Assembly: GCF_964204645.1 (NCBI RefSeq)
Contig: NC_134026.1
Location: 13,638,050 to 13,702,049 of the forward strand
Length of the DNA stretch: 64,000 nt
From: Tubulanus polymorphus
Lineage: Eukaryota > Animalia > Nemertea
Direction: 5' to 3'
Each line of letters starts with the position of its first letter. Position 1 is the stretch's first letter. The translations under genes were made by a program, and so were the position numbers. The notes beneath the pieces were generated by a model, which was not told the DNA's origin, made no database searches, and saw nothing but the letters and a program-made list of their open reading frames with translations. This document shows, piece after piece, positions 9,543 through 57,674 of this stretch.

Positions 9543-10500
9543 CCTTATACCTTCATGACCCAGTAGAAGAAGAATGATTGAGTATTCAAAGTTTTACAGA
9601 AAGATTTACATTGTAACGATGTAACAAGTTTTAAGATAGTTAAGATGGTATAGGCTATGTGGCGATAATGTTCATTTTCTGTCAATATATCCTTACATGA
9701 AGACAAGCCCATTTTAGCTGCCCCAAAGATCACACTACATGAAAAAATGCATCAAGAATTGGTGTAGGCATCGTGCTGAAAAGAAATCCAAGATGGATGG
9801 CAACCCTAGTGGCCATACTTGAACTCAATTTTCAATAAGGGGTAGACATTTAACCTACCGAAATTCTTACACCTAGTATCATGAAAATGCATCAAGAATT
9901 GCAGGCTATTTCGTGCTTGAAATTCAAGATGGCTGACCTGGCGGCCATATTTGAAAGCCAATGACCTCCATATACAAAAGGCATGGACAGCTTATCTGCT
10001 CTGATCCTCACACCAAATTTTGTGGAAATCCATCAAGAATTGCGGGCTGCATCGTGCAAACAAGAAATTCAAGATGGCCACATAATGGCAGCCATATTTG
10101 ATCACCAATGACATTTTTTTACAAAAGGGGTGGACATCTCGCCAGACCCAATCTTCAAGCTAATTTTCAATAAGATTTATCGCAAATTACAGGCGAATTA
10201 CGGTGTCATTTCATGTGAATTCAATTCAATTCCAGAGGGCCTGGCTTAGACCTATGCAATAGGAGTCAATTTAAGATTCGACTTTTTGAAAAACGAGCAC
10301 AGATGCATATTCAAATCACATGTAATTAAAAACATATGCTTCTTAGTTTGATGTCCCTGTTTTCATCGCGCACGTGGTTAAAATTATTGTTTACATCGAA
10401 CATCTTCAACAGCTGATACAACCGCACCCGCGTCTGTCAATCATCTTAATCTATTCATATACTTATATGCTCACTACGAAAAAACAATTAACAATCCATT
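9543..10500 (+). mobile_element. HINE-like repeat family D, uninterrupted copy
   Basis: Colinear with 27915-27996 plus 36276-37130, so it provides the empty-site sequence for the KDZ insertion. Confidence 0.7.
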
Positions 10501-12159: not shown

Positions 12160-13544
12160 ATGGTGTACCGCACTGGTGGACCCCTACTGTATACTATCTA
12201 CATTCTACCTATGGGGGATATCATTAGACAGTTCAACTTTCATTTGACTTTCATTTGTATGCTGATGATTTGCAGTTGCAGTGTTCTCCATTGTAATAAT
12301 ATTTTCTCAGGGGCGGTATGTATGCGAGAATGAGCGCTGAAGGCGCTAGCACTTATGAGGATAGGGGGGTCAAATTTTCTATTTTTAGTTGCTCAGATGC
12401 GTTGAAGCACTTGTCTGCCAGTGATTAGTAGTCTTACGTGCATAAAATAGTTTGATGTTCTTCCATTTATGTAATTTAGATATGTCAATAACGCTCAGCT
12501 AGCATTAAATTTATTTCCATTTGGTAACCTAAAAAATATTTTGGTTATCATAATAAAAGTTTATCTACGGGCATTGAAACTTGAAAAGTTGAGGCCGCTG
12601 GTTTCGTTAATTCAGCTGGTGAGGCAGCAGTGTCGGAACCTTTGCGACCATTGATTTTTTTTTATTTTTAGCATGCCGGGAAATCCCAGGGTATTCATAG
12701 GCCTACCTGAGCGGCGCCACGTGGCTTCCTGGTGAGCCGTTTCTACAATTGTTGACATATTTAATAAGTTTATATGGTGTGAAGCTTTGTCTAACTCACT
12801 CTATTTATATAATTATTGACATACGTGGTGTTTCAACTTATTGGGACAAAGTAGATCAATTTTTTTTGTAGTGGTGCTTGACTATTATAGAAGGGCGGAA
12901 AAAAATAACAGGGGCGGATTTTCACGTTTTCAAATTTTCAAAGGGCGGCCCACCCCTCAGAAACCACTTACGGAAAACATTGAGTTGTGCATCAAGATTA
13001 AACGTAAGGTTGACTTCCGAGTTTAACTTGCGCTAACAATACCCTCCAGCTTTGCTGCGCTGATCTGAAGTGATGGATGGATTTAAATTTTTTACTGACA
13101 AATGGAGACAAAACCGAGTTTTCACTTATCGTAATCCATCACAGCTCACCAAGCTCTCTGTTTTGTATTAGATCTAGACGATTCTGTTATCACCCCTGTT
13201 CATTCGGTCAGAAACCTAGGTGTCATTTTTAAGGACAGTATGACTATGTCGAAACATATCAATAAGTTATGCTCTAGAGCATATTACCACTTACAGAACA
13301 TTAGTAAAATTAGACAATTTTTGGTCCAAGTGACTGCTGAATGCCTCATTCATGCTTATGTAACCACTCGTCTAGATTACTGTAATTCTTTGCTATTTTG
13401 TCTCCCAGAAAATATTATAACTAAGCTACAGCGTGTTCAAAATTCTGCAGCTCGAGTTGTTGCTCGAAACTCAAAATTCTGTCATATATCACCAATTCTT
13501 CATGACCTTCACTGGCTCTCAATCAAATCCCATATCCAGTTTAA
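12160..13544 (+). pseudogene. L2-clade LINE reverse transcriptase relic, 5' piece (interrupted by a ~0.67 kb MITE-like insert at ~12308-12972)
   Basis: Reads GVP..GPLLYTIYILPMGDIIRQF..FHLYADDLQL, then SVRNLGVIF..HAYVTTRLDYCNSLL..KLQRVQNSAAR..LHWLSIKSHIQF. Confidence 0.85.
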
Positions 13545-14629
13545 CCCTATAACTGCCGCTCCCGAGATAGTCGGGAGCGTAATTTCACCCCAAACTGCCG
13601 CTCCCGAAATAGTCGGGAGCTGAATGAATATCACTAGGAAGTGTCTGCACCTGGCGGATATTGATAGAACTATATCGGTAGTACAGACACAAACTTAACT
13701 TCAAGGTCGTAGAGTTTTTATGGAAAAATTTTACGCATTTACTTAAAATTTACGCTTAGAAAATGACTTGATGTGTAATAATAAGTGTGCTTATTGTCTT
13801 ATGGATAATGATAGATCAACAAAGCGACTAAGGTTGGACCAATTCGTTGATATTTTTGATCAGAATGATAACACATTTGGACATTTGAGTGATGAAGCGT
13901 GAGATGAGAATTCATAATTTGGTGTTGAGGATGGTAGTTTGGATTTTGAGGAGGGTGATGATTTTGACAGTAACCATGGCAACGCTGAAAATAATTTGGA
14001 TGATCATGATTATAACAGTGATGGAATTCAGCCAGCTGGTCATTATTTTTGTGGTAACATTCCCTTGTGTCCTTATCCTTGTTTCAAAATATGGCATGCT
14101 AAAAAGAATCTGACTGAAAATTGAATGTGTGTTCGAAATCCGAGAATTTTGGTATCAGAGGAGTGACCATATTCTGGCATAAAAAAAGCAATAAAAACTG
14201 AATTACGATAGTTATCAATATGAAATAAACTTTATTAGGTAGCAATCATTACATATAAGTGTATTAGATTGAAAATAATCATATCTTTGCTTACTGTAAC
14301 ATGATATATGAGTTTGAAATTTCATTTTTCGATTGGAATGGAGTTCAGCGGCCATCTTGATGACGTCATTGGTTGACCTAGTTTATTCTGCGTCACTTTT
14401 TTTGGTGGGATAAGATAGCTTAGTACATTTACTTTCTAACCATATATAGTTTGCATGAGTTAAATTCAGAAGTAAAAGCCATGGAGCTACTTGAATATAT
14501 TGTTATTATTATTATTTATTATTATTTATTTTTCCATTTTGAATTATAATAATCGTACAAAGTAATACAAATACAAGTATAGCTGCAAAGCAGCGATAAC
14601 AGGTTTTCTGCACAGTCTTAGAATCCTGT

Positions 14630-14880
14630 TCAACGGTGGATTTCGACAATGCATTTGATAAGGCTCAACATCAGCCATTACTGAACAGGCTATTAGGAAA
14701 CAGTATCAATGATAGGTCGCCCAAATGGCACAGCAGTTATCTCTGAACGGAAACTTGTAACCGAAATCAACGGAACGCCTATTCTCGGAATGAGACGGTC
14801 TAACTAGTGGAGTCACGCAAGGTAGTATCCTAAGTCGTCTTCTGTTTAATGTCCTGACAAATGACATACACAGTAATCCA
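14630..14880 (+). pseudogene. Degenerate CR1-like reverse transcriptase fragment
   Basis: AFDKAQHQPLLNRL and TSGVTQGSILSRLLFNVLTNDI resemble RT motifs AFD..H..LL.KL and SGVPQGS.LGP.LF....ND. Confidence 0.6.
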
Positions 14881-14949
14881 AAATACACCAGACCGAGTAA
14901 ATTTCCAAAACGACCTTAACACACTGTTCGACCAAAAAACTTAATGTTC

Positions 14950-17395
14950 CGACAAAACCACGGGGACAAAAGCAAAATTATGAATTGTCGCGGGTGACAA
15001 AACCAAAATATTGAATTGTCACGGGCGACAAAACAAAAATAATGAATTGTCGCGGGCGATAAAACCAAAATAATGAATTGTCGCGGGCGATAAAACCACA
15101 ATAATGAATTGTCGCGGGCGTTAAAACCAAAATATTGAATTGTCGCGGGCGATAAAACCAAAATAATGTATTGTCGCGGGCAACAAAACCAAACTAGGGG
15201 TCCAGGGACACCATGCTCACTTGGGAAGTGGTTTCAAATGCTCAACAATCTAACAATTTCAATACATAACGCCTTCATGTGAGCAGCTATGATTTTGTAA
15301 TTGATTGTGTTAACAAAATATGCCTCGTTACCAATTTAATATGGAAATACTAAGTTATTCTACTATTTAACGCCCCCTGGTGACCATATGCAAAACCCAA
15401 TGACCCTAAAACTCACCACAATCGTAGTACATGTCATGAAATACAACTTGCAATTGATCATAGTAACAAAATATGCCTAGGTTCCAATCTAATAAGGAAA
15501 AACTAAGCTTTTCTACTATTCAATGCCCCCTGATGACTATATGGAATAACTAATGTCCTTAAAAACTCACCACAATCATAGACGATGTCATGAACTACAA
15601 CTTTGCGATGGATCATGGTAACAAACTATGCCTAGGTACCAATCTAATAAGGAAAAACTAAGCTTTTCTACTATTCAACGCCCCCTGATGACTATATGGA
15701 ATAACTAATGTCCTTAAAAACTCACCACAATCATAGGCGATGTCATTTGTAATTGATCATGGTAACAAAATATGCCTTGGTACAAATATAATATAGCAAT
15801 ACTAAGTTATTGTATTATTCAACGCCCCCTGATGGCCACATACAAAAACCAATGACCTTGAAACTCACCAAAATCATAGAACACGTTATGGGCTACAACT
15901 TTCCAATTGAATATAGTAACACAATATGCTTAGGTATCAATTTAATGTGGAAAAAATTTTTCCCACCTACGAATGAGTACTGATGACACCAAGATGGCCG
16001 CCAATTGCGTCATAATTGGCTGATCAAAAATACCTGTCCCAGGTATAAAACATCCCTCTTTAAAGAATACCCATCAGCAATTGCAATGAGAAATGGCAAA
16101 CCAGTAGGAAGCTACAGGACCTAGAATTCTGGCCAAAATTGACATTTTTGGGCACTAAAAAGGTCATAGGACGGCCATCTTGAGTCAGATCGACCCAATT
16201 TTCTTATGCTGATGGGCCTTTGGTAGATTCAAATATTAACGAAAGATCAAGGTAATTGATCAAAGCGTCTTCAAAATTTCCCACGAAAACTTCGAAAATG
16301 TTTAAAAAGTGCTGATTTTGGCAAACAACAATGGCTGCCAGTCGACCATCTTGAATCTGACAGGGGCAGTTTTTGGGCTGACGATGTATCTAGGGTTGAT
16401 ACATGTATAAACCAAATATCAAGACATTACCTTGAAGCGTGTTAAAAACATCCCAAAATAACTAAAGTCCCAAGTGGACTGAAAAAGAATTGTCGCAGGC
16501 GATAAAACAAAAATATTGAATTGTCGCGGGTGATAAAACCAAAATATTGAATTGTCGCGGGCGACACAACCAAACTAATGAATTGTCGCGGGCGATAAAA
16601 CCAAACTATGAATTGTCGCGGGCGATAAAACAAAAATATTGAATTGTCGCGGGCGATAAAACCAAAATAATGAATTGTCTCGGGCGACAAAAACAAAATA
16701 TTGAATTGTCACGTGCGACAAAACCAAAATAATGAATTGTCGCGGGCGACAAAAACAAAATAATGAATTGTTGCGGGCGATAAAACCAAAATAATGAATT
16801 GTCTCGTGCGACAAAACCAAAATAATGAATTGTCGCGGGCGACAAAACCAAAACATTGAATTGTCGCGGGCGATAAAACCAAATAATGAATTGTCGCGGG
16901 TGACAAAACCAAAATATTGAATTGTCACCGGCGACAAAACAAAAATAATGAATTGTCGCGGGCGATAAAACCAAAATAATGAATTTTCGCGGGCGATAAA
17001 ACCACAATAATAAATTGTCGCGGGCGTTAAAACCAAAATAATGAATTGTCGCGGACGGCAAAAACAAAATATTGAATTTTCGTGTGCGATAAAACCAAAC
17101 TATGAATTGTCGCGGGCGATAAAACAAAAATATTGAATTGTCGCGGGCGATAAAACCAAAATAATGAATTGTCTCGGGCGACAAAAACAAAATATTGAAT
17201 TGTCACGTGCGACAAAACAAAAATAATGAATTGTCGCGGGCGATAAAACCAAAATAATGAATTTTCGCGGACGGCAAAAACAAAATATTGAATTGTTGCG
17301 TGCGACAAAACCAAAATAATGAATTGTCACGGGCGATAAAACCAAAATATTGAATTGTCGCGTGTGACAAAACCAAAATAATTAATTGTCGCGAA
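14950..17395 (+). repeat. 31-32-bp minisatellite array, split by a HINE at 15192-16485
   Basis: Unit aaaaccaaaataatgaattgtcgcgggcgat, in arrays at ~14950-15190 and ~16487-17395. Confidence 0.9.
15192..16485 (+). mobile_element. HINE-like family A copy
   Basis: Starts aactaggggtccagggacaccatgc, has ~120-bp internal repeats (ttcaacgccccctg.tgac), and ends ctaaagtcccaagtgg.ct. Paralog of 41778-43066. Confidence 0.75.
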
Positions 17396-18703: not shown

Positions 18704-21616
18704 TTAATTGAGAAGATACTGTTTGAGAGCACGTTTAAAAACTGGAGGGGATACTGATCCAATGATCTTCAGTGAGTAAGGTAAGTTATTCCAAGTTAAA
18801 GGGGCTGATACTTTTAATGAAAATTTCTTTCGATTGGTTCTAAATTGTTCTACTTTGAATGCATGACGGTTTCGAGTATGATGATGGTTAAAGTCGGAAT
18901 TTAATGAAAAATAATCTGAAAACGAGTTAGGCAGTAGTGAATTCTTATATTTAAATATGAAAAAGCACAATTGAAATTTCGTCATTGCTCGAAAAGTAAG
19001 GATACCTAAGTTTTTGAAGATGGGGGCTGTATGGTCAAAGAAGGTAACCTTCGATATTACCCTGATCGCACGCTTTTGAAGTAGGATTATTGGCCTGATT
19101 CTCGATTCGTAGTTATTGCCCCATATAAAATTGCAGTATTGGAGATACGGGTAAACAAAACTATAGTATAAGGTTTTCATCACTAAAACTGGCAATCGTC
19201 TTTTAACTCTATTCAAGACACCAATACTACGAGAGATCTTTTTACAGACAAATGATATATGGTCAGACCACGTCAGTTTACTATCAATATATAAACCAAG
19301 AAATTTTGTGGAATGAACTTGCTTTATTGGGGCATTTCCAATTTTTATGGCACAAGGGGTACCCTTGAAATTTCCGAAAATCATAAAATAACATTTTTCA
19401 AGGTTAAGAGACAATTTATTAACTTGAAACCACATTCGAAGTTTGATGAGTTCATTGTTTATCAGTTGGAATATCTTCTTATGATCTTTTGAATAAGCGA
19501 AGCATGTTGTGTCATCTGCAAAAAGGGTGAAGTCAAGAATTTTTGAAGCATTGACACAATCATTTATGAATAATAGATATAGAAGAGGACCGAGAATAGA
19601 ACCTTGGGGAACTCCGATAGTTATACCCCTTCTTGACGAGTTAATACCATTAAAACAAACAATTTGACCACGATCAGACAGGTAACTTTCGAACCATTTG
19701 AGAGGTAAACCCCGAATACCATAGTGATCTAATTTACCGAGCAGAATTGTGTGGTTGACCGTGTCGAATGCCTTCTTTAGGTCTAAGAAAATGCCTATGG
19801 CTGAATATTTTTTATCAAGGTATGATGTTAGGGTGTCTGTTACTTTGGCAAGAGCAAGTGCTGTGGAATGATTTGATCGAAAACCGAATTGATTTGAAGA
19901 AATAACGTTATGTTTATTGGGAAAGGAGGATAATCTGTGTAAGACCAGCTTTTCTAAAATCTTTGAAAATACCGGAAGAATAGAGATTGGACGATAATTA
20001 TTGAAATTTTCAGAATCTCCTGATTTAAATAACGGGTAAACTTTGGCTTGTTTCATGTCAGACGGAACAATACCATTATAGAAGCTACAATTAAATATAT
20101 GCGATAAAGGAGCATTTATTAGATCTATTGTGTCTTTAAGTAAAGATGAACTAATACCATCCAACCCTGCACTTTTTTTCAGATAAAAATGTCTAACTAT
20201 AGATTCAATTTCACAAGGATTAGTAGGAAACATTAAGAAATTTTCGTTAGTACGATTTTTCAGGTAATATGTGTAGTTGTGACCAGGGAAATCAGGTATA
20301 GTCTCAGAAATTTGTGAGCCTATTTTAGAAAAGAAATCGTTAAACCCACACGCTATGCGATAGTCGCCTTTGAATTCCTGGTTATTTTGTTTAAGAACAC
20401 TAGGTAAAATAGGAGAAGATGATTTACGAAGTATCTGGTTAATAAGTTTCCATTTAAGTTTCATATCAGTACCTATATCGGTAAACTTTTGAGAATAATA
20501 ATCAGATTCAGCTTTTCTTAAGATTTTAGTAAGAATGTTTTTATAAGAATTGTAACTATTCTTGACATCCACGGATGTAGAACGAATTGATTTCTTATAA
20601 AGTCGGTTTTTGTGCTTAATGGAGTTAAATATCGCTGGAGTAATCCACGGCTTCTCGAGGCGTTGTCTATCATTTAGTTAGGTCGGGAGAAGGGGAAAAG
20701 CTTCATTAAACGCAAGATTAATTTTATTTGAAAAATTATGGTAGGACTGATCAACTTCTGAGCATGAATAAATATCATTCCAATCAGTGCTTAATAGGAG
20801 TCTACGATACTTGGATATATTTTTAGCACAGTAAGAACGCTTCATATTTTGTCTGTTATTTGAACAATTTAAAATCTTCTTGCACATTGTAAAAACAGGA
20901 TAATGATCCGATAAATCAGTACAAATAATCCCGGACGTATGATTAACATTTAAATCATTAGTAAAGATATTATCAATAACAGTGGATGTGTTCGTGGTTA
21001 CTCTGGTAGGCTTATCAATCAATGGAAAAAAAGATGATGAAACCAGAGTATCCACGAACACCTCAGTATTTCTGTGCTCATCAAATTTGGATAAATCTAT
21101 ATTATAGTCACCGATAAGGTAACACCGTTTGTTTTCGCGATTGATATTTACAAGTAGTTTTTCAAACTCTTCAACAAAGGGATCGAGCCTTCCTCCTGGG
21201 GGTCTATAAATTACTCCCATAATGATATTGGAGCGTTTTCCCATATCAATCTCGATAAAAAGAGATTCGAATTTAAGAGAACTTGGTGCGATATCGTTGC
21301 GGGTTTTATATTTCAATGAGTTCTTGATGTAAAGAGCTACTCCACCACCCTGGGTTTCGATCCTGGAATTGAATGCGCTTGAATAACCAGGGATATTATA
21401 CATTATACTATTATCATGGTCATCATTTGTCCATGTCTCTGTGAATCCTAGAACAGAAAATTTATCGGCCGAATAGTAGAGAAAATCCGTTATTTTATCA
21501 AAATTTGAATTGAAACTCCTGGCATTATGTGAAAAAAAAGATAAATTATCTCCACTTGAGAGCAATTCATTTTCGTCGTAATAACGACAGGTATTATTGC
21601 CTGATATATCAACCAT
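18704..21616 (-). CDS. LINE ORF2 (APE endonuclease plus reverse transcriptase) with one in-frame stop at 20678-20680
   Basis: Endonuclease motifs HNARS, FTETW, GGGVALY, IYRPP, GDYN, IDNIF and SDHYPV. Reading through the TAA gives KPWIT and the same frame as the RT, with NYRPIS, QFGFR, DLKKAFDTV, GVPQGSILGP and FADD. Confidence 0.93.
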
Positions 21617-21689
21617 AGAATAAATGTTCTAGTCGAGTGAACACATTAATGTCAACATTGACCCGAGTCGGGACACTCTTTCAAGAGTC

Positions 21690-23033
21690 TTATTCATCAT
21701 CGCCATCTGATTCCACATTTGGTTTTTTCGCTAATTTTTCCGCACTGGGTGGAGAGGTCACCGATCTATTCTTTCTTTTGTTATTTGATGGCGTAGACGT
21801 AATGTCAGGTTTAAGAACAGATTCAAAGTTACTGGAAAGTGCCGACTTTCCTAAATCATTAAGATGCACCCCGCGACTATCACTGACGTTGTAATACCTA
21901 TCTCGAATGTTGCCTGTAGGTTTGATGATCACATCATTATTTATATAAATCATATTTTGCTTAACACAAAACGCCTCCATATATCTATTTACGAAACCAA
22001 CCGCTGCATTATACTCTTTTACAGTAGGAGATGACCCCTTTTTAGGTATGATGCTTGATACGCAAATTTTCGATTTCGGGAAATGCTCCTGAACTTTCGC
22101 TAACCCAATGGTGAAGTTCATTTTAACACTGTCAACATCGGATCTATGACGATTAATGTCGTTAGTTCCGAGATGGACCACGACACTTTCAACAGAATCG
22201 GGATGGGCAATATTTGAGCTAACTTTCGAGAGTAGTTGGTCGATGTATTCAACAGTTGCTCCTGACTGATGAATTACTTTTCCATCGGGGTATTGAAAAT
22301 CCCGCATGTTTGAGTCTCCAAGAATGACAACTTTCGTGCCGGATGGTTGATCAATTGGCTGGTCAATTGAGTGGTCGATTTTAGTACTGTCACTCACTGC
22401 CCGATCTACTCCACCCGCAGGTGCAGAGATCGGCTGTGACATTTTACCACAATCTCGCGCTTTATGGTTTAAACTACCACACCGGTAACACTCGACTGGT
22501 TTTGATCTGAGCTGGCATTCATATGCATTATGATCACCTAGGCAAAACTGACAGCAAAAGCCCGTACCGAAAATCCTGATATTGAAACCGTTGATTTTTG
22601 TGTATGTCAGAATAACCTCAATGACGTTTTTTAACTTAAGATACCTAGTCCGAGTATATATGCTAGTACCTTTAATTCGTCCCATTTTAAATGATCCTTC
22701 AGCATATTCTCCATATTTGGAAACAAAGTTGATAATCGTTTGATCTGACATTTCTATCGGCGCGTCAACTATTTTCAACGCCATGTAGTTCTCACTTGCA
22801 TCAACCAGATTAATGACGTTATCGTTTATTGTCAGACCCAAATGTTGAATCCGATTCTTTGTCTCTAAATCCTTAGCCGTTATTATACATAGTTTTGAAG
22901 TGATCTGGATAGATAATATACAGTTACTCACATTATCTAGTATTTGAGCTAACGCCTCGAATACTTGCTGGTGCGAAGGTTTCATTCCATCTAACTCAAA
23001 TTTGAGTGATTTATCCCTATTTTATCCACTCAT
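21690..23033 (-). CDS. LINE ORF1: putative RRM-like region, CCHC knuckles and SGNH esterase domain
   Basis: 431-aa ORF from 22985; an upstream in-frame ATG at 23033 is followed by a TAA at codon 4. Knuckles are CQFCLGDHNAYEC and CYRCGSLNHKARDC. SGNH blocks are VILGDSN, HLGTND and DSRGVHLN. Confidence 0.85.
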
Positions 23034-27139: not shown

Positions 27140-28510
27140 CTGAAAAGAAAAGAATTTCATATTATAGGGGAGTGTCTAATGAGAAAATCATAAGACTAGA
27201 ATGAGGCAAAGCCTCGGATACCCCCGGCCTGAAATTCACCACCATGTGAAGTTACAGGGTTTGTGGTAAATGCGTTAGAAATGTAATGGCCACAATTATT
27301 TTATAATAATGATATTGGAGAACATGTGTACCAAGTGTAAAAAATTGATCAATAGTTGCAGCCTTTAGGCTGTTTCCCCTGATGGCCATAATTTGAATCA
27401 GTCCACAATTGCGGCCTCTAGGCGGTTTAAAAAAAATGGATCAACAATTGCAGCCTTTAGGCTATAGAGTTCATTTTAAATGTCGGCCCCCTGGTGGTCA
27501 TTATTCGAATCAATCCAATCTCAAATAGGATTCGGGGCCAAGTGATACCCTACTTGTGTACCAAGTTAACAACAATTGCGGCCTCTAGGCCGTTAATGTC
27601 GTTTTTCATCTTGGCCCCCATGTGGCAATAATTTGAATTGAATCAACCCAATTTTGAGAAGGCCTCTGTCCCAAGTGATATCATACTTGTGTACCAAGTT
27701 TGAAATGATTCGGTCAACAATTGCAGCCTTTAGGCCGGGGGCATAAAAATTTGTGTAAAACAGAACTGAGTACAGTCAGTGCCTATTAATAGTACAGAAT
27801 GATGGGTTCAGTCAATGGTCCATACTTGAACTCAATTTTCAATAAGGGGTAGACATCTCACCTACCAAAATTCTTACACCTAGTATGATGAAAATGCATC
27901 AATAATTGCATTGCAGGCCTTATACCTTCATGACGCAATAGAAGAAGAATGATCCAGTATTCAAAGTTTTACAGAAAGATTTACATTGTAACGATGCAGG
28001 TATATAAACTGCCTATTTTTGTAACTTGCTCATACAGTTGCTCATGAGCATTTTTTGGGTTTTGTAAGTTGCTCACATCTACTGAGGTGAGCCAGTGTAT
28101 GGTTTTTGAAAGTTGCTCACATTTACTGAGGTGAGCCAGTGTAGGGTTTTTGAAAGTTGCTCACATCTACTGAAAGAGTTTTTCAAGTTGCTCATACATT
28201 CTTAAAATGATTAAATAGGCCTATCAAGCTACCAAATCTTAAACTTAACTACACCAACTATTCAACTATCTATAACATTGTATAGACTAATTTTACTCTA
28301 AAATACAGATGTCTCTAATTTGCTTTAGACTAATTTAGCCTACTTACTTACTCTTAAAGCTCACTCCCTAATTAGCCGTAAGTCCCTATCAAATTTCCCC
28401 TAATTGCCTTAAGACTGATGTCACCCTAAAATATAAATTTCATTAATTTGCCTCTACACTAGTATACTGACTAGTATACAGTTTACTTTAAACAATCAGG
28501 TGATAATATG

Positions 28511-28544
28511 TATAAAAGCCTTGCTTCAGTGTGGTATATCAGTC
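28511..28544 (+). promoter_or_regulatory. TATA box plus initiator upstream of the NRF1-like gene
   Basis: TATAAAA at 28511 and TCAGTC with its A at 28541, a 30-nt spacing. The ATG is at 28591. Confidence 0.6.
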
Positions 28545-28590
28545 GGAAAACTTATTTTGTCATGGACACGTATATATTTAATTATCATTG

Positions 28591-30329
28591 ATGGATACCG
28601 CTACGCAACGTGCAGTTAACCGCATTGTAAAAGGTGTAAATTCGTATGTGAAGGACACATCCATGGATGCTGGAGCTTTTTTTTTTTTACACAGATAAAA
28701 TAACCAAACAAAAAACACTAGGAATTGTTGGATCGCCATTAATGCGCGCAGCGTTCGAGGAGAACAAGGACATTATTGCGGAGTCTATTGCCAATGGATT
28801 AACTTCAGTGACGGTAATACCTCCAGGGGAATGTATAACTGCTCTAGTTGTGGAGTTTAAGTTACCTAACATAATGATCGACTATGGGAAACCACTGTCC
28901 CGATTACCACTGACAGATTTACGGGTGATAATTTCAACTGTGGTGTTAATATCCAAATTGATGGACAATCCAAATGCTGAAAAATTGCCTCGATGGGGAA
29001 ATGAGAGTAAAAGAACGCCATGGTGGCCAGCGGATTGCAAGTGGCTAAATCCGAGATGTGACAAAAGAGATGCATCAGAAAAAAAGGGAGAATCAGCAGC
29101 AAATGTGTGTCGCAGAATAATCACTGCGGCATATAGATATCATAACGTATTGAGTCTTACTGGTAAGTCTATTAAATTTTATGATTTATGATAACTAGCA
29201 GGCCATTACCATCAACAAACACAGGGAACCTCCCTGAACAGACAGGCCACCATCATCATAAAACATAATTTTAATCTTATTTCATTTCTTATTTATGCAG
29301 GTGATGAGAATGGTCTTAGCAATGAAGTCACCTCTGCTACAACCGTTGATGCTGCATATATAAACAGTACATATGCAATCCCCAGTGACCCCGCTACTCT
29401 GTTAAGTATGTAATAAAAATCATTTGCTAAAATTAAATAACATCTATTTGATAATCATATATTGCAGTATCTTGTATATTGCAACCTCTACAATTATAGT
29501 TTAATACTTTTTTGTACTTTTATACTTCAGTTGAAGACTTCCCAACCAGCACCAGTAATGAGACGTATATTTTGCCTCTTAATTCGACATCCGAAGCCAC
29601 TGAAATTGATAACTTGGATATTGGTAGTAAGTATATAAGTAATATGCATTATTAATGCTATTAGTGAATTCATGTACCCATTATTGTGTATATTTTACAT
29701 TCACAAAATAATTTAGATTGTTTCTATTTTTCCGATTCATATTTGATATTTTTGCCAGTAGGTTTTGCTTGTAGATAATTTTGTACCTATTTCCATTTTC
29801 AGATGTTTCTAAAATCATAGAGGCAGTGAATAATGCAAGTGATTTAATGAACTTGAATTTTTCATCCTTACTGGTGGAAAGTGTTGGTAAGTCTTATTTT
29901 GATTTTAAATTGATAATGAAATGTCACAAAACAGCTTCCCTTGAATGATTGTTCTATTCAGTAATTATTCTGTTATTTAAATAGAAAATAGATATAGTGA
30001 AGAGAAACAAGCTGATGGTTCGCTACATACTCCGAATACTACTATGATTTGTGACAATATTCAGAACCATGCACATTCGGACAGTATTCCTGCAGGTAAA
30101 TTGAAATTATATCCTTTTAAGAGGGATGAGATAATCAGAAAGAAAACAAGAAATTTGCAGTTTATGTGTTTGCTCATATTTTTCATTTCTTTTTCAAACA
30201 GATGTGACTAGAGATTTGTCCAACAGCACTCAGAATGTTGCACCAGTCCGCCAAAGTCGTGCCCGAAAGGTTACCAAAAGAATGGAGGAATGGAAGAAAA
30301 TGGAAGGGAAACGTCGACGAATTGTTTAA
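28591..30329 (+). CDS. Transposon-borne NRF1/P3A2/erect-wing-like DNA-binding-domain protein, 6 exons, ~365 aa, one frameshift in a T12 run
   Basis: Exons 28591-29162, 29301-29405, 29531-29626, 29803-29886, 29985-30095 and 30202-30329; all introns are GT-AG and phase 1. LPNIMID..LTDLRVII..LPRWGNESKRTPWWPADCKWLNPRCDKRDASEK..CRRIITAAYRYH aligns by eye with recalled NRF1 LPPLTID..TQAQLRAFI..KPGWGKESCKPIWWPEDIPWANVRSDVRTEEQK..LRTIVKNCYKQH. Confidence 0.85.
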
Positions 30330-30462
30330 TTCTAATTGTCAGACATGTAAATATTCAAAATTCGATGTATATGAGTATTTTAAACTTTTTGATCAATATA
30401 GTTATTGCTTGCTTACAAATGATTGCTTTCTTTCCTTATCAGCATATAAACACACACCATGG

Positions 30463-31374
30463 TAGGGTCCCTACAGATCATTCTACAATCATTCTAGAAT
30501 TCAAGGACTTTTGAAGGATAAAATTTCAAATTTGAACGAGTGTCTGCATCACTTTCATATCCAAATTACGGTCCTAAAACGGTACTGCTTATCTTGGTAA
30601 ACCAGTAATTTGGTGGTTGTAAAAGCAAATTTTTATCTTTTACCCTACTACACTTGATTTCTAACTGTCTAATTGAGTAAAAAAATCCTAGTTCCAACAG
30701 TACCGATTTAGGAATAGTGTATCTCTTCTGTTCAACTACAAACGTAAACAAAAATGTACAGAAATGAACTTAAAATTCGCTGATTGAACATTTTGCAAAA
30801 CGTTTATCATAAGTTTTCGGAAGCCAATCCTTAAGGTCTGGATCCTGAAGCCAGTTATCATTAAATGCAGTTTCCCCGTGGCATTTTGAAGAATATGATA
30901 GTGTAGATGTGTAACGAATAAAGCCTGATGTATTCGAGTGATACATAATTACTGTCTCAACTAAGAGTGAAGCAACACTTTAAACCCTTGAAAATACTGA
31001 TTGATTAAAATAACAGACCCGCTAATCAGTACTAATTTCCCAACCAGGCAGTCTTAATTAAATAATGCTGAACAATTCTGAACATAGTTCTTTTGTCCAA
31101 GAGATACAATGAGAACCACAGCAGACACTATGTATTAATCATACTACAATTAGCTGGTGAAAGACTGTGTGTATGGGGCCTATGACTACTAACTAGGCCT
31201 AATCTTGGAAAACACTTGTAACCTAAACATTTTCTCATTGCCAATTTCTCAAAATTCAAGGAGTTTTCAAGGACTTTAGGGCATTTTGCTCCAATTAAAG
31301 GATATTCAAGGACCTTGAAAAACATTTTTGGTTTAGAGGAGTTTTCAAGGAATCAAGGACCTGTAGGGACCCTG
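30463..31374 (-). mobile_element. Non-autonomous hAT-like element nested between the two KDZ genes
   Basis: TIR agggtccctacag / ctgtagggaccctg with flanking CATGG(T) duplication. A minus-strand relic FNDNWLQDPDLKDWL..AKC resembles a hAT BED-finger N-terminus. Confidence 0.7.
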
Positions 31375-31913
31375 CATGGTGTAATCAGTGTAGAATATAA
31401 CACTGTAGAACAATACTTGGTCCGTGGACAAATATGCATCAAGTGATAACATAGAGACATAATCTTGAAGAAACACTCTACGGTATTCATGTTGCAGCGA
31501 CAATTCATAAAAAAAATATTGCTTGTGTTTGATCAGTTTCATTTTCTGAGCGTGTCAAAAAAAGTTTGTCAGTAAAAAATTAAAATGCGCATCCCGCATG
31601 CAGAAATGTTTTCGTTTTTTTTCACTATTTGAATTTGGATTAAGGCTTGTCACTTTTCCAAAAAGGGCTGATGAGAAACAACGGTATTTCTTCATATGGC
31701 CTAATCCCACAATAATGATTAAGAATAAGTCAGAAATGTTTCCTTTGAGCTAATGTCTTATTCGATTTCAAGTTTACAAAAATATTCCATGTTTAATTAA
31801 TTATATTATTTACAGAAAGAAATTTGTGGCAAAATACAGAACAATTCAGGTAGGCATAGTGAAACCTGGTAAATGTGTTATGATACAATACATATTTCAG
31901 ATTCAATTTTTTT

Positions 31914-34900
31914 TTACAACTTTACATTTTTATCCTGATTTTTAAGGACCAGAAATAGTGCTACATGCCGAACAAAGTTTTCTGGCTTCATGTAAGCAAG
32001 TTGACTTTTCAGGCGAATAAGTCCCGAATTAGCTTTTTCATTCAGTTGTGAATTAATATTGGAAAGATCCACATTGCTGCAGTAAGTGTCTAGTTTATAG
32101 CCAGCACAACACCTACAAAATGGAAAAAAATTTGATACATATATACATGACGAGTAGATGAGGTGATGAAAGATATAATTCACGAGATAATACATACCCT
32201 GTATGATTTACCCAATGCATTCTGTCCACACAAAATATAGTGTTCTTGAAAAATTCTGGTTCTCTGTAATTAGAATAATTAATGGACTTACTTCAATAAC
32301 AATCAACCTCGGTTAATCGCTATCACTTGGGACTGAGCTCTTTAGTATCGATAACAGGTAATCCGTTATCTATGAATTACTTAATATTTCTATGATCAAA
32401 TATAAGTGCACGGGCCAATTGCCTAAATGCTTACCTATTAAGAGCATATTGATGCAGCTTGCATGCATTATCATGCACGATCATAGACGGTGGCCTGGTG
32501 AATCTTGTCTTAAATATTGAAAATGGAAATCGTGGCGATTCATGAGACTCCATGGCCTATAATACAATATACAAACGAATTAACAGATACAGGGTAAGAG
32601 GTAATTGCTTTTAAAAAGAATAATTCGATTGAATGAGTATATTCACCTGAAATCCATAGCAGATTCCATGCGGACAAAACACAGTAAAAATCCCTGGTGT
32701 AAGAACCCTGTGGCGTTTTGACATCTTATTACAGGCATCATCCCGGCACATGTCATTATCCTTCTTATCATCCATTACATATGCTGCATCACTAAAAAAA
32801 CATATCTGCCCTTATATATCACATTGACAAATGAAAAACATGTTGAACTGAAATTACATTAATAATACCATTACTTTATCAATAAATCTTCCTAATCACA
32901 GAAAGTATTCATTACCTGTGGTGTTTAGGTAAACTCGGGAAAAATGACAAACTCTTGAAAAGATTTTCGTATGGAGCTGGTGTGTATATATAATCCTTGT
33001 TGCACTGCAATCAAAAGTAAATCAGACCATAAGCTCATCAGGCATTATCTAAAATATGTATTTACGATGTAACGAAAACTTCTCACATTTTCTCTAAATT
33101 ATCATCCATTAAAAATTCATTACCTTAAAACAAGCTTGTATTTTCTTCAGAAGTTCTCTTATCAAATCAATGTAGTCATTATACAGGTTACCATCTGATA
33201 AACTCTGACTGATAAACTCAATCAGTATAGGTGCATCTATCAGTAGCTGATTAAGTATCTCTGAATTCTTACTATCAAATGTTTCAGTTATCTCGGACAG
33301 CGCGTGATCCAACATATCTATGACGCGATCCAAATCATTGGTCTGTAGAAGAGCACATGCTGGACCGTTGGCACTGATTGCTTGAAGGAATTTTGTCTCG
33401 GATGATTTACAATTTAATGAGTTTGAAGCGGACACTATATTTTTGAGCGGGTTAAGGTGTTCATATTTGCTGATTTGCAGAATTAAATCCTGCTTTTCTT
33501 CTGGTGTCAGTGGTAAAGGAGATCTTGGTTCTACGTGAGTTTTCGACGAAACCTTCGGCCCCCAGGCATATTGTGAAAGTAATTTTCTCGCTTTGTTGTC
33601 TGGTACAAACACTCTATCTTGTGTGCCTGAAATCCTCGTGCCTGCGTTATGAAAATTCATCAACTGTATCGACTTGAGAAAATCTTTTCTAAAACCCAAA
33701 TCAACACCGTCGCAAACAATAACCTAGAAAAGAAAACCTTTATTACATATATTTCCAGGAACCCTACTGTCAAGTTGGTATTTTCAATCAGTCAATAATT
33801 TACCTGAGGATGTTTTCCACACCAAACGCATAGGAATTTTCTAGCCCAATCAAAATCTAGCAGATGCATCAGACCATTCCATGCACGCTGAAGCGTATGG
33901 AGAGGAATAATAGGAATCTTGGAAAGCGTTCGTGATGATCTTGTCAAAGCTCTTAAAAATAAATTCAAATTAGACTAATCCCTAAATTAGAAATCATTGA
34001 GTTGTAGTATAAAGTATCTAAAACAGCAAACCTGTGGAATGTTGAGAGGGCACCTTCCATCTACCATCAAATGCATGTATTTAAACAGCATGCAGTAATC
34101 TACAAGGTCTTTGTTGTTGATATTCAGGATACCATCTGTATTTCCATCGTAGAATTGTTTACATTGACAAACTTTTTCTTTGGTCGGACGGAAATATACT
34201 AGAAAAAATTGAAATGGTTAAAGTTAATCACTTACAAGTAGAAGAGATTAAAACACGTTTCTATAATAGAAAATTCATACTTGAAAACTTGGTGAAAACT
34301 CCATTTAGAAACTGTCCATCAAGTGACCCGAGCTCAGTGTGAATGGTACATGTACCACTTTCCAATTCATTAAAACAGGATCACGTTCATCCCAAACATT
34401 TCCATGCTCACATGTACCACCAGTCTTTGTCGGAATAAGATTCGATGGAAATGGCATTCCCCTGCTGCGTTGACCAAGAACAGTTGCAATTTGATCACTA
34501 CAGGGATATGACACATTTTCTGTTATTAATTTACGAGTGATTACTTCTGATTCATTAGTGAAGTCCTCTATTTGAGTTTCTGGATATGGAATAGATTCAC
34601 TGTGACACCAATCACGATAGCGAGAAATGTGATCGCAATGACTATTAAATCTGCATTCCTCGCATATTAATTTCTTCAAACGTGGTTGCCAACGGATAAC
34701 ACTTGTCTTATCATCCAGAGTCACACTGACAACTAGAGGAGAAACTGACAACTGATTAACAATGCAAACATCCACGGGATCACTGATATTCTGCACATCA
34801 TAAAGCTTATTAACGGCATACGCATGAATGCAATACTGATTTTCTTCGCGTTTCATGAAAGTCGATACAGTTTCACCCTCGACTGCCCTTTTAAGAGAAA

Positions 34901-35719
34901 GAAGTCGATTTCTGCTGAGGTGTGCATTCTTACAGCTACATGTTAACACTTTAAATCCCTCTCCAACACAGAAAAACTGTAAACTATACAAAACAACATG
35001 CACATCTTTCAGAATAGTTCCTTGATCATTGCTATCGGCTACAATATACGTTTGGCCGTTTATGTTCCAATGGCGATGAGTCTTCTTCAGTTCACCTACA
35101 TAATACACGTGCAGACCCAATTCCAAGTCAACTGCAAGAACGGTGTCAATATGCCTATAAGAAAATATAGAACGGATATGAGAAATATATTCATTTTTCA
35201 ATAGATGTGAAACCTTTCATTTAATCACAAACATATTATTTTAAAGGAAATTTTTTCATTATAGACAAGTAAGAAGTATTTTTTATCTTTAGGGTAGACA
35301 CTGAGCAACTTTCATGAGCAGCTCCCATAAAATTAAAATACCTGAGCAAGTAAATGAGCGGCGTGCATAAATGGCCTACCCACCTGACCTGAGCAAGTAT
35401 ACATGAAAAGCAACTAGTTTCTAGTGTAATTAAGGCCATTACGGCATTAGGCCTATATATAAAATGCTGTGCTTAGAGGCTCATTTAGCTACATAGCAGG
35501 CAAGGATTCACAACGAAAAATAACTTACTGGAGAGATGTCGCAATAATTACGTCGCTGCTTGACGACGACGGTGTGTTTGTCGTTCGTTGACGTTGTTGT
35601 TGCCGACCATTTTTTTTGAGAACTGCGACTGTGGTTCTACGTTTTTTTGGTTTTGGATTACCAGCACTATCTCCGACTCCGGTGCCAGCGATCATATCAT
35701 TGTATGATCGCCGAGGCAT
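31914..35719 (-). pseudogene. KDZ transposase, 10 exons, about 2 apparent frameshifts
   Basis: Exons 35719-35529, 35154-34281, 34198-34032, 33951-33804, 33723-33124, 33004-32916, 32791-32647, 32556-32435, 32263-32198 and 32112-31914. Motifs include SWIM-like CSC..CIH, FLCVWCGKHPQVIVCDG, TPGIFTVFCPHGICYGF, ESPRFPF, MIVHDNACKLHQYALNREP, DRMHWVNH and NSQLNEKANS. Confidence 0.88.
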
Positions 35720-37639
35720 TCTAAGAAAATCTATCTATGGATATAACCTTTCTGCGTGAGTAGTAGTGCAACGACTTCGAACTTTCTGCTCGGATATTGT
35801 CTGATTAAACGTAAGCCGGCAGCGCCCAGTGACACAATTCAATTCAATAAAGATTTATTGCAACCAGGTTACGGAAATAGGTTTGAATCCCGCATGCAAC
35901 AAATATTTTTCCTGCAACGTGCGCGTAGCGTATGATTGTAAAAATCATAATCATACAATAAAACTTTATTTATCAGATTAATTTTGCAATAAAACTTTCG
36001 AGTAAAAGTCAATGAAGTACAGGCTCGCACAAACTGATACCGTCTACGCCTACGGCACGTCTTTCGCGAATTGCTTTCTACTCGATGATGAGCAGTGTTG
36101 ACTGCTCACCCAATGAGCAGTGTTGACTGCTCACCCAGGTCCGCGAGCCGAGCGATCTGCCGTGCCTGAGCAGTTTACAGTGCTCAGCATGAGCAGAAAG
36201 CAATTCTTAGAAATGCTCATGCGCAACTCATGTGAGCAACTTACAAAAAGCACTGAATTTTATAGCTCAACGATGTAACAAGTTTTAAAATAGTTAACAT
36301 GGCTATGTGGCGATAATGTTTATTTTCTGTTAATATATCCTTACATGAAAAGACAAGTCCATTTTAGCTGCCCCATAGATCACACTACATGAAAAAATGC
36401 ATTAAGAATTGGTGTAGGTATCAAGCTGGAAAGAAATCTAAGATGGATAGCAACCCTGGCAGCCATACTTGAACTCAATTTTCAATAAGGGGTAGACATC
36501 TCACAAATTTCTTACACGTAGTATCTTGAAAATGCATCAATAATTGCAGGCCGTTTCGTGCTAGAAATTCAAGATGGCTGACCTGACGGCCATCTTTAAA
36601 AGCCGATGACCTCTATATACAATAGGCATGGACAGCTTACCTACCCTGATCCTCACACCAAATTTTGCGGAAATCCATCAAGAATTGTGGGCTTCATTGT
36701 GCAAACAAAAAATTCAAGATGGCCACCACAATGGCAGCCATATTTGATCACCAATGCCTTTTTTCACAATTGGGGTGGACATCTCGCCAGACCCAATCTT
36801 CAAGCTAATTTTCAAAAAGATTCATCGCAAATTACAGGCGAATAACTGTGTCGAATTCAATTCAATTCCAGAGGTCCTGGCTTAGGCCTATGCAATAGGA
36901 GTCAATTAAGATTCGACTTTTTGAAGAACCAGCACAGATACCTATTCAAATCACATGTAATTCAAAAATTCAGTGCTTCTTAGTTTGATGTCCCTGTTTT
37001 CATCGCGCACATGGTTTATATTATTGATTATTGTTTACAGTGAATGTCTTCAACAGCTGATACAACCGCACCACCATCCGTCAATCATCTTAATTGATTC
37101 ATATACTAAAATGCTCACTATAAAAAAACTATGCGGTGAATCAATCCAGAATTTTTCAGTAGAATGTCAGTTACTAGGTACCTTTCTTTAAAGGTTTATT
37201 TGTTGTATGTCATTAACAATCAGTTATATAATACTTTATTCATATACTCAAGCAAGATCAGTCAAATAAGCCAGCGATAACACAAAACAGACCATGGTTT
37301 TCCCAGTTAAGAGCGTCTCTCCACATAAATTAGAGGGACTATAATGGACCATTTGTTGACAAACGTGAAACTAATATGGCTACAGTCGAAATTAAAACTA
37401 GTTACTGACGAAAATATGGAAATAAACAACTATATCATGGAATAGGCCTATGTTAAGTGCTATTTCAAAAATGTATGTGTGGCACTATTTTAAGCGCGGA
37501 CTAATACTGTTTTACTTCTAGACAGGGGTGGCGCTAATTAAAAGTTTCAATTTTTTTATTTCAGCAATATCTAATTAACCAAATAACAAAAATTCACCAT
37601 ATATGAACTCAACCTTCTATGTTTCATATTTAAACGACT

Positions 37640-40495
37640 GTGAAAGTTACAGACACGTACATGGCGTAAAACGGACGTAATCGTTTGACGTGACGGATTT
37701 CACGATAACAATAGGACGAGGTGTTCTACGTACCGTTGTCCTAAAAAGATTCGGATTTGCCCCTGTCTCATACACATTGCACCACCATGCGTCCACCCTA
37801 TCGCATTTTGGATCATAAGGTATCTTAGAAACAGCCGGATCAGAGTGGAATTTTCTCACCTCTTTTTCATAACATTAAAATTTCTTCTGGCTGAAGAATA
37901 GTTGTCAATACTTTCTACGGGATTTGAAGCATGTATTTAAGCGCATTAGTATAGCCACGACAAGCAGGGTCTACACTAGAAAAATACAAGAGGGCCATAT
38001 TCTCAAGGGCATTTTCATAATGAAGTATTTTCCACAATCAACATACGCTGTAGAAATCATGTTCAAAAACTTAACACGGAGGGAGTCGTCTTTCCTAAGT
38101 CCCTCTAACAGTCCCTCAGCTGCCTATAAACAACTCTCTGTCACGCATTTTGGCTTCATGACCTCGGGAGTCATGCAGACAAACCAGTTTCTGACCAGAT
38201 GCTGCTTTACAGATAATCTCTGGTTTAACAATACAGGAGAGAAAGTTCCTAACTAAGTCAGTTATCATGTCATATAAAACGTGTATCATTGGCTTATTCA
38301 TTTCCAGCGTCATTACATATTTCTTTAGAAATGGGAGTACAGACTCATAGAAATATGCGTACAAGACCGTTTCCTTAGACTTAATTACGATCTTCTCGTA
38401 AATTCATTGCTTGCGGTTTTTACCAGCCTCTGTTAATCCTTTAGATGACAGTTTCAGCAAGATGCTTTTGATGTGATCTCGAGCCTCAGTAGACACACCA
38501 TGATCCTTATAAATCTCATCAATGATGATAGATAAAGCACTTTGTCATTCTTGTACAAAAAAGAGTAATAAAACACGGTATAAGCATCCTTCAAGTGCAA
38601 AAACGAAAGTGTAGCATCATAGGCAGAAAGGCATCGATGGTCAACGAATCTGTGTGGCATCTGAAATGTAATACCAAGCGAGTTACATATCTCTTCGAGT
38701 GCGACTACGAGATCAGTTGAGAAGTTGAAATCATTGTACAGGTCATTGTATAAGTTTTCCAGATACCTTTCAAATGGTTTACACAGTTTGTGACTTGCAT
38801 TATGAGCATGATGACAAGTGTCGCCATCAATATCAATTAAATGTGGAGCCATGTTGCTGCGAATTCTCTTTTCCACACCGGTTTTGGAACCACGCATAAC
38901 ACTACAACTGTCCATCAATATGGAAATAACATAACACCAGGGAAGTTCACGTTTCACAAATGCATTCGTAATACAGTCATAAACAGTCTGGGAATTGACG
39001 GTCGACATTGAAATGAATTCAAGATGTTCCACGAGAACTTGCTTTCTCTCTAGCGAAAGGTAGGCCACAAGTAAAGCCAGTACACAAGAATGATTGGAGC
39101 TGATGGCTTCATCAATGTTTAAGGAAAACGGCACTACAGCTAGCTTATCTTTTAACTGGTTTTCAAAAGTTTTCGCAATACCATACTTCATCTTATAAGA
39201 TGAACTTGTTCGATCAACTGACAATGATGATAATGCAGTCTTGTCAGCTGCCATGCCTTTAGACAGTTCTATTAAAGCAGGTGATGCTGTGAACGGCAGT
39301 GAATGTTCAGCCATAAACCCGAGTAACATGGATTCCATGTTACTAACCCTGTCTTCTACTGGTACATTTCGTTTTGGTGGGTCTCGCAAGACAGTCTGTT
39401 GCTTGCCAAACATCTGATGAAGACCATAAGTAGTTTTATCAGACTGGCCACTGGAAGTCCCTGAAAAGTTAAAATCTAATATTTTTAGACTTACTTTAAA
39501 AACCTGGATATATTAGGCTGAGGGATTCAATGTACGCTATAGGACTGCACCTGCCCAGTAAAACAGTATCCAACTTAAAGTTGGAACTAAAAAAAAATTG
39601 GGCATAGGCTCCGGCGCGCCCACGCCATTTTCATTCATCCCCCTTTCCCCCATGCACGCCTACCGCAATTGCTGAAATAACGTGCCCCAACCCAAAATTG
39701 AAAATGCATGCAAAAAAGAAAAAAATCCACTCACCTTCACATGGTGCAGCAAAAAATAATTATTAGGCCCAAACCTTTAGGCCTCCCATAAGCTTCTACT
39801 ACAGAAAAAATAATAGCAAAAAGATTTACAAACCTGGGAGAACGTAATTAGACGAAATATCTTTGACGTTTTTCCGATGTTTATTCGACGCGACGTGGTC
39901 TGTCAGTGCAGGTTTTCCCCTGGTATCATACTTTAACACAGCATCACAGGCCGTGCAATACACTTTCCCCGGAGCTTGAATTTTTCTTATGTATTTAACG
40001 AGAAACTCTCCACCTACGTCAGCCTGCAGACAGGCCCACCTCCAGCCATTCGCGAGTGATTTTTCGGATTCAAGCCTGTCACTCGTGCCGGCACGGCGAA
40101 TGAGAATGTCACCTCACATTTTACTACTAGCGTATTGTTATTTCAATTTACCAATCGAAGACGGAAGGCATGCTTGGCACGCTTATTCTTCAAGCGCTCT
40201 CATTCATGAGATGAGCGATATCATTGGCTGACAACCATGAGCTTTAGGCCAATCACAATAACTGTTTCGAATAGACACAGCTTGGACAGCGGAACGACGA
40301 ATTTAAAGGGGAGGAAGCACGTCGTTCGCGTTCATTATCTGTGAGGGGATATAGGTTCATCGATATTCCATCAACCAACCACCCCCCCATGTTTTCTCAT
40401 CGGATTTGGACGAATTGCAAAACTGATATTTTTTGAAGAGGAGAAACGCAGAAAAAATCCGCAGATCCGCGGACCTCTCACATGTAGGCCTATGC
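37640..40495 (-). mobile_element. Degenerate hAT transposon with transposase pseudogene
   Basis: BED-finger exon at ~40075-39834 (WRW..KVYCTACD..DHVASNKH). The ORF at 38454-39413 has FSLNIDE, ILMDSCSVMRG and DTCHHAHNA. A candidate terminus ccgcggacctctcacatgt lies at ~40468-40486; the other end was not resolved. Confidence 0.82.
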
Positions 40496-57368: not shown

Positions 57369-57674
57369 AGTCATCTTCCCTGTATGTGGTATGCTGAAAC
57401 ATACCAAACTGAAGACAGTTTAGTATCAGTCGAAACGAAATATTTAATACACTGTCGGAACGAAACATCGGAGACATCGTTACCTTGTCGTTTTTTTTTT
57501 CGTATAGGTTTTCGATCATATGTAGTGGTGTTGTGATGTTAGCACTCGACGGTTACACCCTTGCAGTGAGCTGGTCGCTGGTATAACAGTATTACAGTCA
57601 TAGTGTGACTTCGTGGTTACATTATAAATAAAGGTATGTTCATTATCTATTTTCGCTTTCACAATTAACTTAAC

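Follow-up and report, generated by a model that had tools for sequence, protein, structure and literature searches.

A KDZ element with two convergent genes

The transposon described here lies in a 64,000-nucleotide stretch (the window) of the nemertean Tubulanus polymorphus (NCBI RefSeq assembly GCF_964204645.1, contig NC_134026.1, forward-strand positions 13,638,050 to 13,702,049). It is an 8272-bp element at window positions 27997..36268 that encodes a KDZ transposase and, as its second gene, a protein with the DNA-binding domain of the host proteins NRF1, Erect wing and P3A2. Its boundaries were defined from its junctions compared with an empty site: the element sits inside a host repeat, and an uninterrupted copy of this repeat occurs near 9543-10350. 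The sequence AACGATG is found on the plus strand immediately left (27990..27996) and right (36269..36275) of the element and once in the paralogous empty copy (9615..9621, plus strand), whose flanks align to both element flanks; the target-site duplication (TSD) is therefore 7 bp. Alignment with the empty copy gives 93% identity for the right flank (about 700 aligned columns) and also takes in the final ~80 bases of the left one. An initial sequence-only reading had proposed one element with terminal inverted repeats (TIRs), a TSD of 7-8 bp and a visible empty site; the single element and the empty site stand, the TSD is fixed at 7 bp, and the TIRs turn out to be imperfect. An 8-bp TSD with one mismatch was rejected on the alignment of the element ends, which runs without gaps over 38 bases only when the last base is 36268. 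The TIRs are about 54 bp long, with 8/19, 17/19 and 14/16 identical positions in three blocks. The left one (27997..28050, plus strand) ends in the perfect palindrome TGCTCATGAGCA (28039-28050), the right one (36214..36268, minus strand) contains the near-palindrome TGCTCATGCGCA (36214-36225), and the termini read CAG at one end and GAG at the other. No further pieces of the element were found elsewhere in the 64-kb window. The window also contains a 31-bp tandem array (14856-17370) and several interspersed families of repeats with units of 140-154 bp; the element inserted into a member of one such family.

The two genes are spliced and convergent, with 10 exons on the minus strand for the transposase and 6 on the plus strand for the NRF1-like gene, as first proposed; all 9 + 5 introns have GT-AG borders. 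Their stop codons are 1.6 kb apart with non-coding DNA between them. In the assembled sequence the copy is broken by three frameshifts, two in the transposase and one in the NRF1-like gene, suggesting that it is probably dead.

Exon 1 of the NRF1-like gene (28591..29162, plus strand) encodes the dimerisation and DNA-binding domain in one exon, as supported by Pfam, Protein Data Bank (PDB), structure-model and homolog hidden Markov model (HMM) comparisons. The match to Pfam Nrf1_DNA-bind (PF10491) reaches 51.6 bits (cut-off 23.5, E 1.3e-13), and a PDB sequence search matches only two NRF1 sequences, human 8k3d (E 2.6e-8) and 8k4l (9.3e-8). An AlphaFold model of the domain, built on a 44-row alignment that included host NRF1 rows, has a predicted local distance difference test (pLDDT) score of 90 and superposes on 8k4l with Z 15.1 and a root-mean-square deviation (rmsd) of 1.9 A over 97 residues, the next unrelated row having Z 5.4; with Foldseek, three NRF1 chains alone are found at E<=0.001. 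The assignment of this exon to the NRF1 family was thus confirmed by both profile and structure. Weak fold rows (GTF2I, Z 5.4; EIN3, Z 4.7) and structure-atlas rows scoring under 0.9 (a mollusc cluster of 101 unnamed proteins, YDR124W-like and GTF2I) are leads only. The residues with which human NRF1 reads bases, R206, N242 and R244, are R, N and R in the window protein, and the codons matching R206 and N242 lie at 28922 and 29048.

The remaining exons (29301..30329, plus strand; 29301-29405, 29531-29626, 29803-29886, 29985-30095 and 30202-30329 with the stop) follow in frame and encode an S/T/N/acidic linker and a basic tail. The 145 residues in the middle of the protein consist of 13% S, 10% T, 12% N and 16% D+E, in agreement with the low-complexity S/T/acidic region and basic C-terminus noted earlier. 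The same exon chain is present in a second Tubulanus protein, the RefSeq model P0001 (LOC141912150), which is 92% identical in exon 1 and 89.5% identical over 306 aa. Residues 328-379 of P0001 are a Harbinger-type DDE fragment, and this fusion probably arose in gene modelling. The reading frame of exon 1 is broken in a run of 12 T (28677-28688). The 34-residue frame upstream of this run aligns to dimerisation helix 3 and raises the homolog HMM score by 13 bits, though by itself it matches weakly (hhalign E 0.098); the ATG at 28591 is the probable true start. An in-frame ATG also lies downstream, at 28742; a protein starting there would be 314 residues long and contain the DNA-binding domain, but only a small part of the dimerisation domain. 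Programmed frameshifting at the T run was rejected, as four related proteins (P0002, P0025, P0027 and P0029) cross this region in one frame.

The transposase model has 867 aa, with its two frameshifts read as X. Exon 1 (35529..35719, minus strand) is basic and resembles a nuclear localisation signal, its start codon being the least certain part of the model. Exons 2-3 (34032..35154, minus strand; 35154-34281 and 34198-34032) were placed by homolog alignment and a weak Pfam CxC4 match and carry the clusters CxC...CxH, CxxC...CxH and a CxC4-like one; homolog alignment puts the frameshifts at about 34361 and 34046. The RNase H-type KDZ core is encoded by exons 4-10 (31914..33951, minus strand; 33951-33804, 33723-33124, 33004-32916, 32791-32647, 32556-32435, 32263-32198 and 32112-31914), identified by fold search and by the RefSeq protein P0098 (LOC141900820, Tubulanus polymorphus). 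P0098 is 100% identical to residues 408-867 of our model, and because this identity extends over 460 aa it probably represents a partial gene model of this same locus. It passes the Pfam KDZ profile (PF18758; 27.3 bits, cut-off 26.6, E 3.4e-6), which finds no match in single exons or the unspliced frame of the window. The CxC4 profile (PF18717) stays below its cut-off in the window exon (E 0.013), and is above it in 3 of 14 homologs scanned (P0065, P0084 and P0099), which align over this region. Of the expected KDZ and CxC profile matches, the first was obtained through P0098 and the second through these three homologs. The residues C136-x-C138...C172-x-H174 are kept in 13-14 of 14 homologs, and Pfam gives no SWIM match.

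A search with the catalytic exons recovered 33 proteins from 641 candidates, and a search with exon 2 found no match among 913 candidates. The homologs come from Tubulanus, Ptychodera, Amphiura, Saccostrea, Crassostrea and Branchiostoma, plus unnamed records, and our model aligns with homologs over nearly its full length at 30-36% identity. The candidate catalytic residues are highly conserved (D466 in 27/27, D768 in 28/29 and E827 in 26/27), and at two conserved sites this copy has private changes, H767 (Y elsewhere) and K828 (Q elsewhere). The predicted structure has a pLDDT of 85, and the top 29 rows of a wide fold search are DDE transposases or integrases, the best being ISCth4 (Z 9.5, rmsd 4.0, 205 aligned); Foldseek finds nothing at E<=0.001. 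Altogether, the element belongs to the KDZ group of cut-and-paste transposons and is of the CxC4 type; of its first label, KDZ/Zisupton, the KDZ half holds and the Zisupton half fails on the 7-bp TSD. Among the wider relatives, P0068, P0079 and P0093 represent clusters of unnamed single-ORF (open reading frame) KDZ/CxC4 transposases with 25, 22 and 12 members at 90% identity, which are possibly young families. In viral contigs, none of 46 pattern matches was a relative of the transposase.

Element-type NRF1 domains and their transposase neighbours

A representative search with the NRF1-like protein yielded 63 proteins, of which 61 carry PF10491 and two matched only the Harbinger fragment fused to P0001. 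We observe a divergent element-type set of eight, made up of the window protein and P0001, P0002, P0003, P0025, P0027, P0029 and P0061. Median identity is 35% among these proteins and 31% between element- and host-type proteins, compared with 64% among host-type proteins, and the DNA-binding domain of the window protein does not exceed 38% identity with any of the 46 host-type proteins. The domain is conserved across the element-type proteins, and the linkers are not: all eight domains look as if encoded in one exon, end in Y..LTG and have in common an invariant N-P and W/P/N/Y core residues, and the base-reading residues are largely kept, with R206 in 6 of the 7 aligned, N242 in 8/8 and R or K at position 244 in 7/8. 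The window protein shares with the host proteins the DNA-binding fold, R206, N242 and R244, as well as helix 3, two strands and helix 4, which make up the dimerisation domain's second half; it has neither the N-terminal helices, nor the KKRKR signal, nor the long C-terminal region of NRF1.

We calculated an unrooted tree of 57 NRF1 domains with no outgroup, leaving out the two Harbinger hits and five short fragments. All 46 host rows fall on one side of a branch (support 100/95), the eight element-type rows group together (96/79) and three gastropod proteins form a third class, with long-branch warnings; the element-type branches are very long. The window protein, with its N-terminal part absent, lies outside the host branch. 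The tree argues against a recent capture from the worm's own NRF1 and has no bearing on the direction of transfer. The gastropod proteins (P0035, P0048 and P0058; 911-982 aa) have an NRF1-like domain without R206.

Consecutive RefSeq accessions are taken here to correspond to neighbouring genes, and pairing at two further loci was read solely from this order on one contig. In Tubulanus, the NRF1-like P0001 (XP_074659467) is consecutive, on a shared contig of 14,301,023 bp, with a transposase, P0097 (XP_074659468), that is 95% identical to the one in the window. In the acorn worm (hemichordate) Ptychodera flava, the CxC4 transposase P0065 (XP_070541358) and the 'Ewg-like' P0027 (XP_070541359) are likewise consecutive on one contig (39,134,633 bp), so that the two genes are likely neighbours there too; this transposase family is only 34% identical to that of the window, and a second copy of P0065 is 99.8% identical. 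As far as accession order shows, other copies carry the plus-strand gene, and the refuting case of copies without it, named in the sequence-only reading, did not arise. Two of five named Tubulanus or Ptychodera transposases have an NRF1-like protein as consecutive accession, and a third is this locus.

We also compared 80 related KDZ loci from metagenomes, 8 of which have at least 3 kb of downstream sequence. In one, L049, a weaker case of pairing, a spliced KDZ transposase is followed, 1.5 kb past its stop, by an opposite-strand exon with a WG..P.WWP core. This exon scores 17.3 bits versus at most 8.4 in five shuffles, with an hhalign probability of 88%, and its PxWWP is the only occurrence in 431,673 residues; Pfam reports for it just YDR124W-like (E 0.21), and a search for the ends of the L049 element found none. 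In a quick 31-row transposase tree, which holds relatives of this element only and no reference Kyakuja, Dileera or Zisupton transposase, a single branch of nine rows (support 88, not starred) contains all four transposases that have an NRF1-like neighbour; the clustering of this label is not significant (67/500 shuffles as low). Convergent downstream ORFs were also observed in L012 (1263-2756, 498 aa, no Pfam match), L020 (6973-10911, 1313 aa, weak Forkhead) and L036 (2145-2699, a PHD finger). The tail-to-tail arrangement of a second gene may be common to KDZ elements in general. For the NRF1-like gene itself, we are highly confident that it truly belongs to the element family, and the two-gene KDZ design is likely old.

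NRF1-type palindromes in the element ends and their possible reader

Both ends of the element contain subterminal arrays of the half-site TGCTCA, with 7 in the left array (28027..28194), partly in 44-bp repeats, and 9 in the right array (36089..36238), partly in 25-bp repeats and located upstream of the transposase gene; four more are found in transposase intron 1 (35302..35395, minus strand). TGCTCA is the most enriched 6-mer in the two 220-bp ends (16 seen versus 0.17 expected), compared with a density of 0.38 per kb in the window outside the element. Each end has one 12-bp palindrome, TGCTCATGAGCA at 42 bases and TGCTCATGCGCA at 43 bases from its terminus. Both differ from the NRF1 site by one or two bases, and they are the only such palindromes in the 64-kb window, where 0.02 are expected; a single one of 100 shuffles yielded that many matches when one mismatch was allowed. 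The human NRF1 dimer binds TGCGCATGCGCA through R206, N242 and R244 (PMC10810270). The element's half-site shares the palindrome geometry of that site and differs from the host TGCGC in one base, leaving it without a CpG; of the 2080 6-mer classes, 10 are at most one mismatch away from TGCGCA, a figure picked after the fact. The differing base occupies a position that human NRF1 contacts only via the main-chain carbonyl of R244 (PMC10810270). The preceding residue, V243 in human, is P in all eight element-type and the three gastropod rows, whereas it is V or I in 46/46 host rows.

These observations suggest a mechanism, which we consider somewhat more probable than its competitors taken together, in which the NRF1-type protein dimerises and binds the TGCTCA palindromes in its own element's ends, as judged from sequence, the structural model and analogy. 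In CACTA/En-Spm elements TnpA is an end-binding second protein that also regulates the transposase promoter, and the Myb-SANT protein of Harbinger elements binds the element ends. By analogy, the compact NRF1-type protein would dimerise, coat the subterminal arrays, and mark and gather the ends, helping the DDE transposase to engage them. Since the same sites are present upstream of the transposase gene and in its intron 1, the protein could also control the transposase promoter. A specificity shift from TGCGC to TGCTC, at the base read by the residue next to the V243-to-P change, would be part of this mechanism; it has to be assumed because human NRF1 binds both end variants poorly. The change to TGCTCA removes the CpG, and binding of the element protein to its site would therefore probably escape CpG methylation. 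NRF1 binding is sensitive to methylation, and a CpG-free site would suit a factor that binds in methylated DNA. The analogy to TnpA and Myb two-component transposons, first drawn in the sequence-only reading, gains a concrete footing in NRF1-type palindromes at both ends. A complex prediction for the Ptychodera transposase and its NRF1-like neighbour, run without alignments, scored 0.00 and gives no evidence either way.

Several observations count against end binding by the NRF1-type protein. Subterminal motif arrays are often binding sites of the transposase. None of the 80 metagenome loci was found to contain an NRF1-type 12-mer, only one of them (with 8/80 having the downstream sequence given above) has an NRF1-like exon, and a transposase with a consecutive accession was retrieved for only two of four named element-type proteins. 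The second Tubulanus copy, P0001, has no R206. Other KDZ loci bear other convergent ORFs, such as the PHD finger in L036, so the NRF1-type partner is at most a feature of a KDZ sub-lineage. Human NRF1 binds the right-end variant 7-fold worse than its own site, with a dissociation constant of 2.23 uM versus 0.31 uM, and the left-end variant is given as 'weak binding' (PMC10810270 Table 2).

This weak binding of TGCTC-type sites fits an alternative that we regard as unlikely, though less so than the other rivals, in which the gene is a long-kept part of the element and the end motifs are read by the zinc clusters of the transposase. The NRF1-like protein would then act elsewhere, for instance on promoters of the host, in targeting, or by competing with host NRF1. 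The transposase does have three conserved cysteine/histidine clusters, CxC clusters have been proposed to read DNA or chromatin (PMC12062965, citing Iyer 2014), and related KDZ loci that have no such gene yet presumably recognise their ends. However, were the end motifs read by zinc clusters, their likeness to the NRF1 site (sequence, palindrome geometry, central AT) would be down to chance, which is improbable on the post hoc 10/2080, and the element protein is without NRF1's N-terminal helices and long C-terminal region.

The damage to both Tubulanus copies, with a frameshift here and the loss of R206 and a frameshifted tail in P0001, could instead mean that NRF1 fragments are neutral cargo, picked up by KDZ elements, perhaps repeatedly, and now decaying. 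Gene capture is known for KDZ elements (PMC12730594), and the very long element-type branches also fit decay. Against this, the eight domains keep their layout, N-P and core residues at a median identity of 35%, they form one branch (96/79) apart from the 46 host proteins (100/95), and paired genes occur in a nemertean and, by accession order, in a hemichordate; we hold the cargo explanation to be improbable. Finally, the 1.6 kb between the stops could hide an old junction of a nested element or host gene that landed in this one copy, but no coherent inverted ends or duplication specific to the NRF1-like gene were found around it and accession order gives the same neighbour pair in two other loci, so that a nested passenger, which the sequence-only reading had named as a possible refutation, is very improbable.

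Relation to other transposons and the rest of the window

The TSD and termini were compared with those of described groups. Zisupton in the strict sense has the layout KDZ + CxC4 + SWIM (PMC11588098) and an 8-bp TSD (PMC12730594), compared with 7 bp here. Kyakuja shares the 7-bp TSD and has CA..TG ends, no TIRs and TET/JBP cargo according to the account in PMC12730594, whereas our element has one end reading CA, the other GA, and TIRs. The element thus fits neither Zisupton, by its TSD, nor Kyakuja, by its termini, cleanly. The closest likeness is to Cryptococcus KDZx1, which likewise has a KDZ core, CxC4, spliced genes and a second internal ORF, CNA07680, given there as of unknown function (PMC11588098); its SWIM-like motif has a candidate counterpart here in C136-x-C138...C172-x-H174. 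It differs from our element, however, in its 8-bp TSD and in its lack of detected TIRs in that description, and the second gene here has an identified NRF1-type domain and an animal host. That KDZ elements carry accessory genes agrees with the TET/JBP genes of fungal elements (PMC12730594) and with the extra ORFs, listed as unknown, of Cryptococcus KDZ1 and KDZx1 (PMC11588098).

Animal Zisupton-like genes are reported in PMC9297572 and PMC12062965, the main texts of which contain no mention of NRF. We found no description of an NRF1-type transposon partner in the literature searched, which did not cover Repbase, Dfam, Iyer 2014 or Bohne 2012. Harbinger and Nuwa elements have a two-protein layout with a Myb-SANT protein (PMC12730594). 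Our element resembles the TnpA and Myb transposons in encoding a DNA-binding protein in a gene apart from that of the DDE transposase and in short motifs repeated in both subterminal regions; it differs in its unrelated transposase superfamily and unrelated DNA-binding fold, and in that its binding is inferred. From host NRF1, the element's protein is set apart by P in place of V243, by a candidate site TGCTC without CpG and by its separate branch.

The element brings a design with a second gene to the KDZ group, the least studied among eukaryotic DDE transposons, together with a candidate end-recognition code of one small domain and one 12-bp palindrome. The NRF1 domain, usually seen as a single conserved host factor, appears as a diverse family spread over transposons from two or more animal phyla, and some invertebrate genes annotated as 'Ewg-like' or 'NRF1-like' probably belong to transposons. 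Element-type variants would show how the specificity and methylation sensitivity of NRF1 can be retuned. The origin of NRF1, by transposon capture or by domestication, becomes testable with public genomes. A speculative and, in our estimate, doubtful reading derives the animal transcription factor NRF1/Erect wing/P3A2 by domestication from the end-binding proteins of KDZ transposons. On this reading diverse and fast-evolving mobile domains, each tuned to its own element's ends, would survive in invertebrate transposons, and one lineage would have become fixed on a CpG-containing site and turned into a host regulator.

Other mobile elements are found across the window. A non-LTR (long terminal repeat) retrotransposon on the minus strand (18707-23021) has an ORF with zinc knuckle and GDSL esterase matches followed by endonuclease-like and RVT_1 ORFs, and transposase-like ORFs on the plus strand (59621-61976) match DUF7869 (E 6.7e-16). 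Transposon fragments occur at 2915-3439, 13135-13620, 38457-39512 and 57669-58974; one is a DDE_1 fragment, and the others are, by their motifs, presumably reverse transcriptase-like, hAT-like and gag/protease-like.

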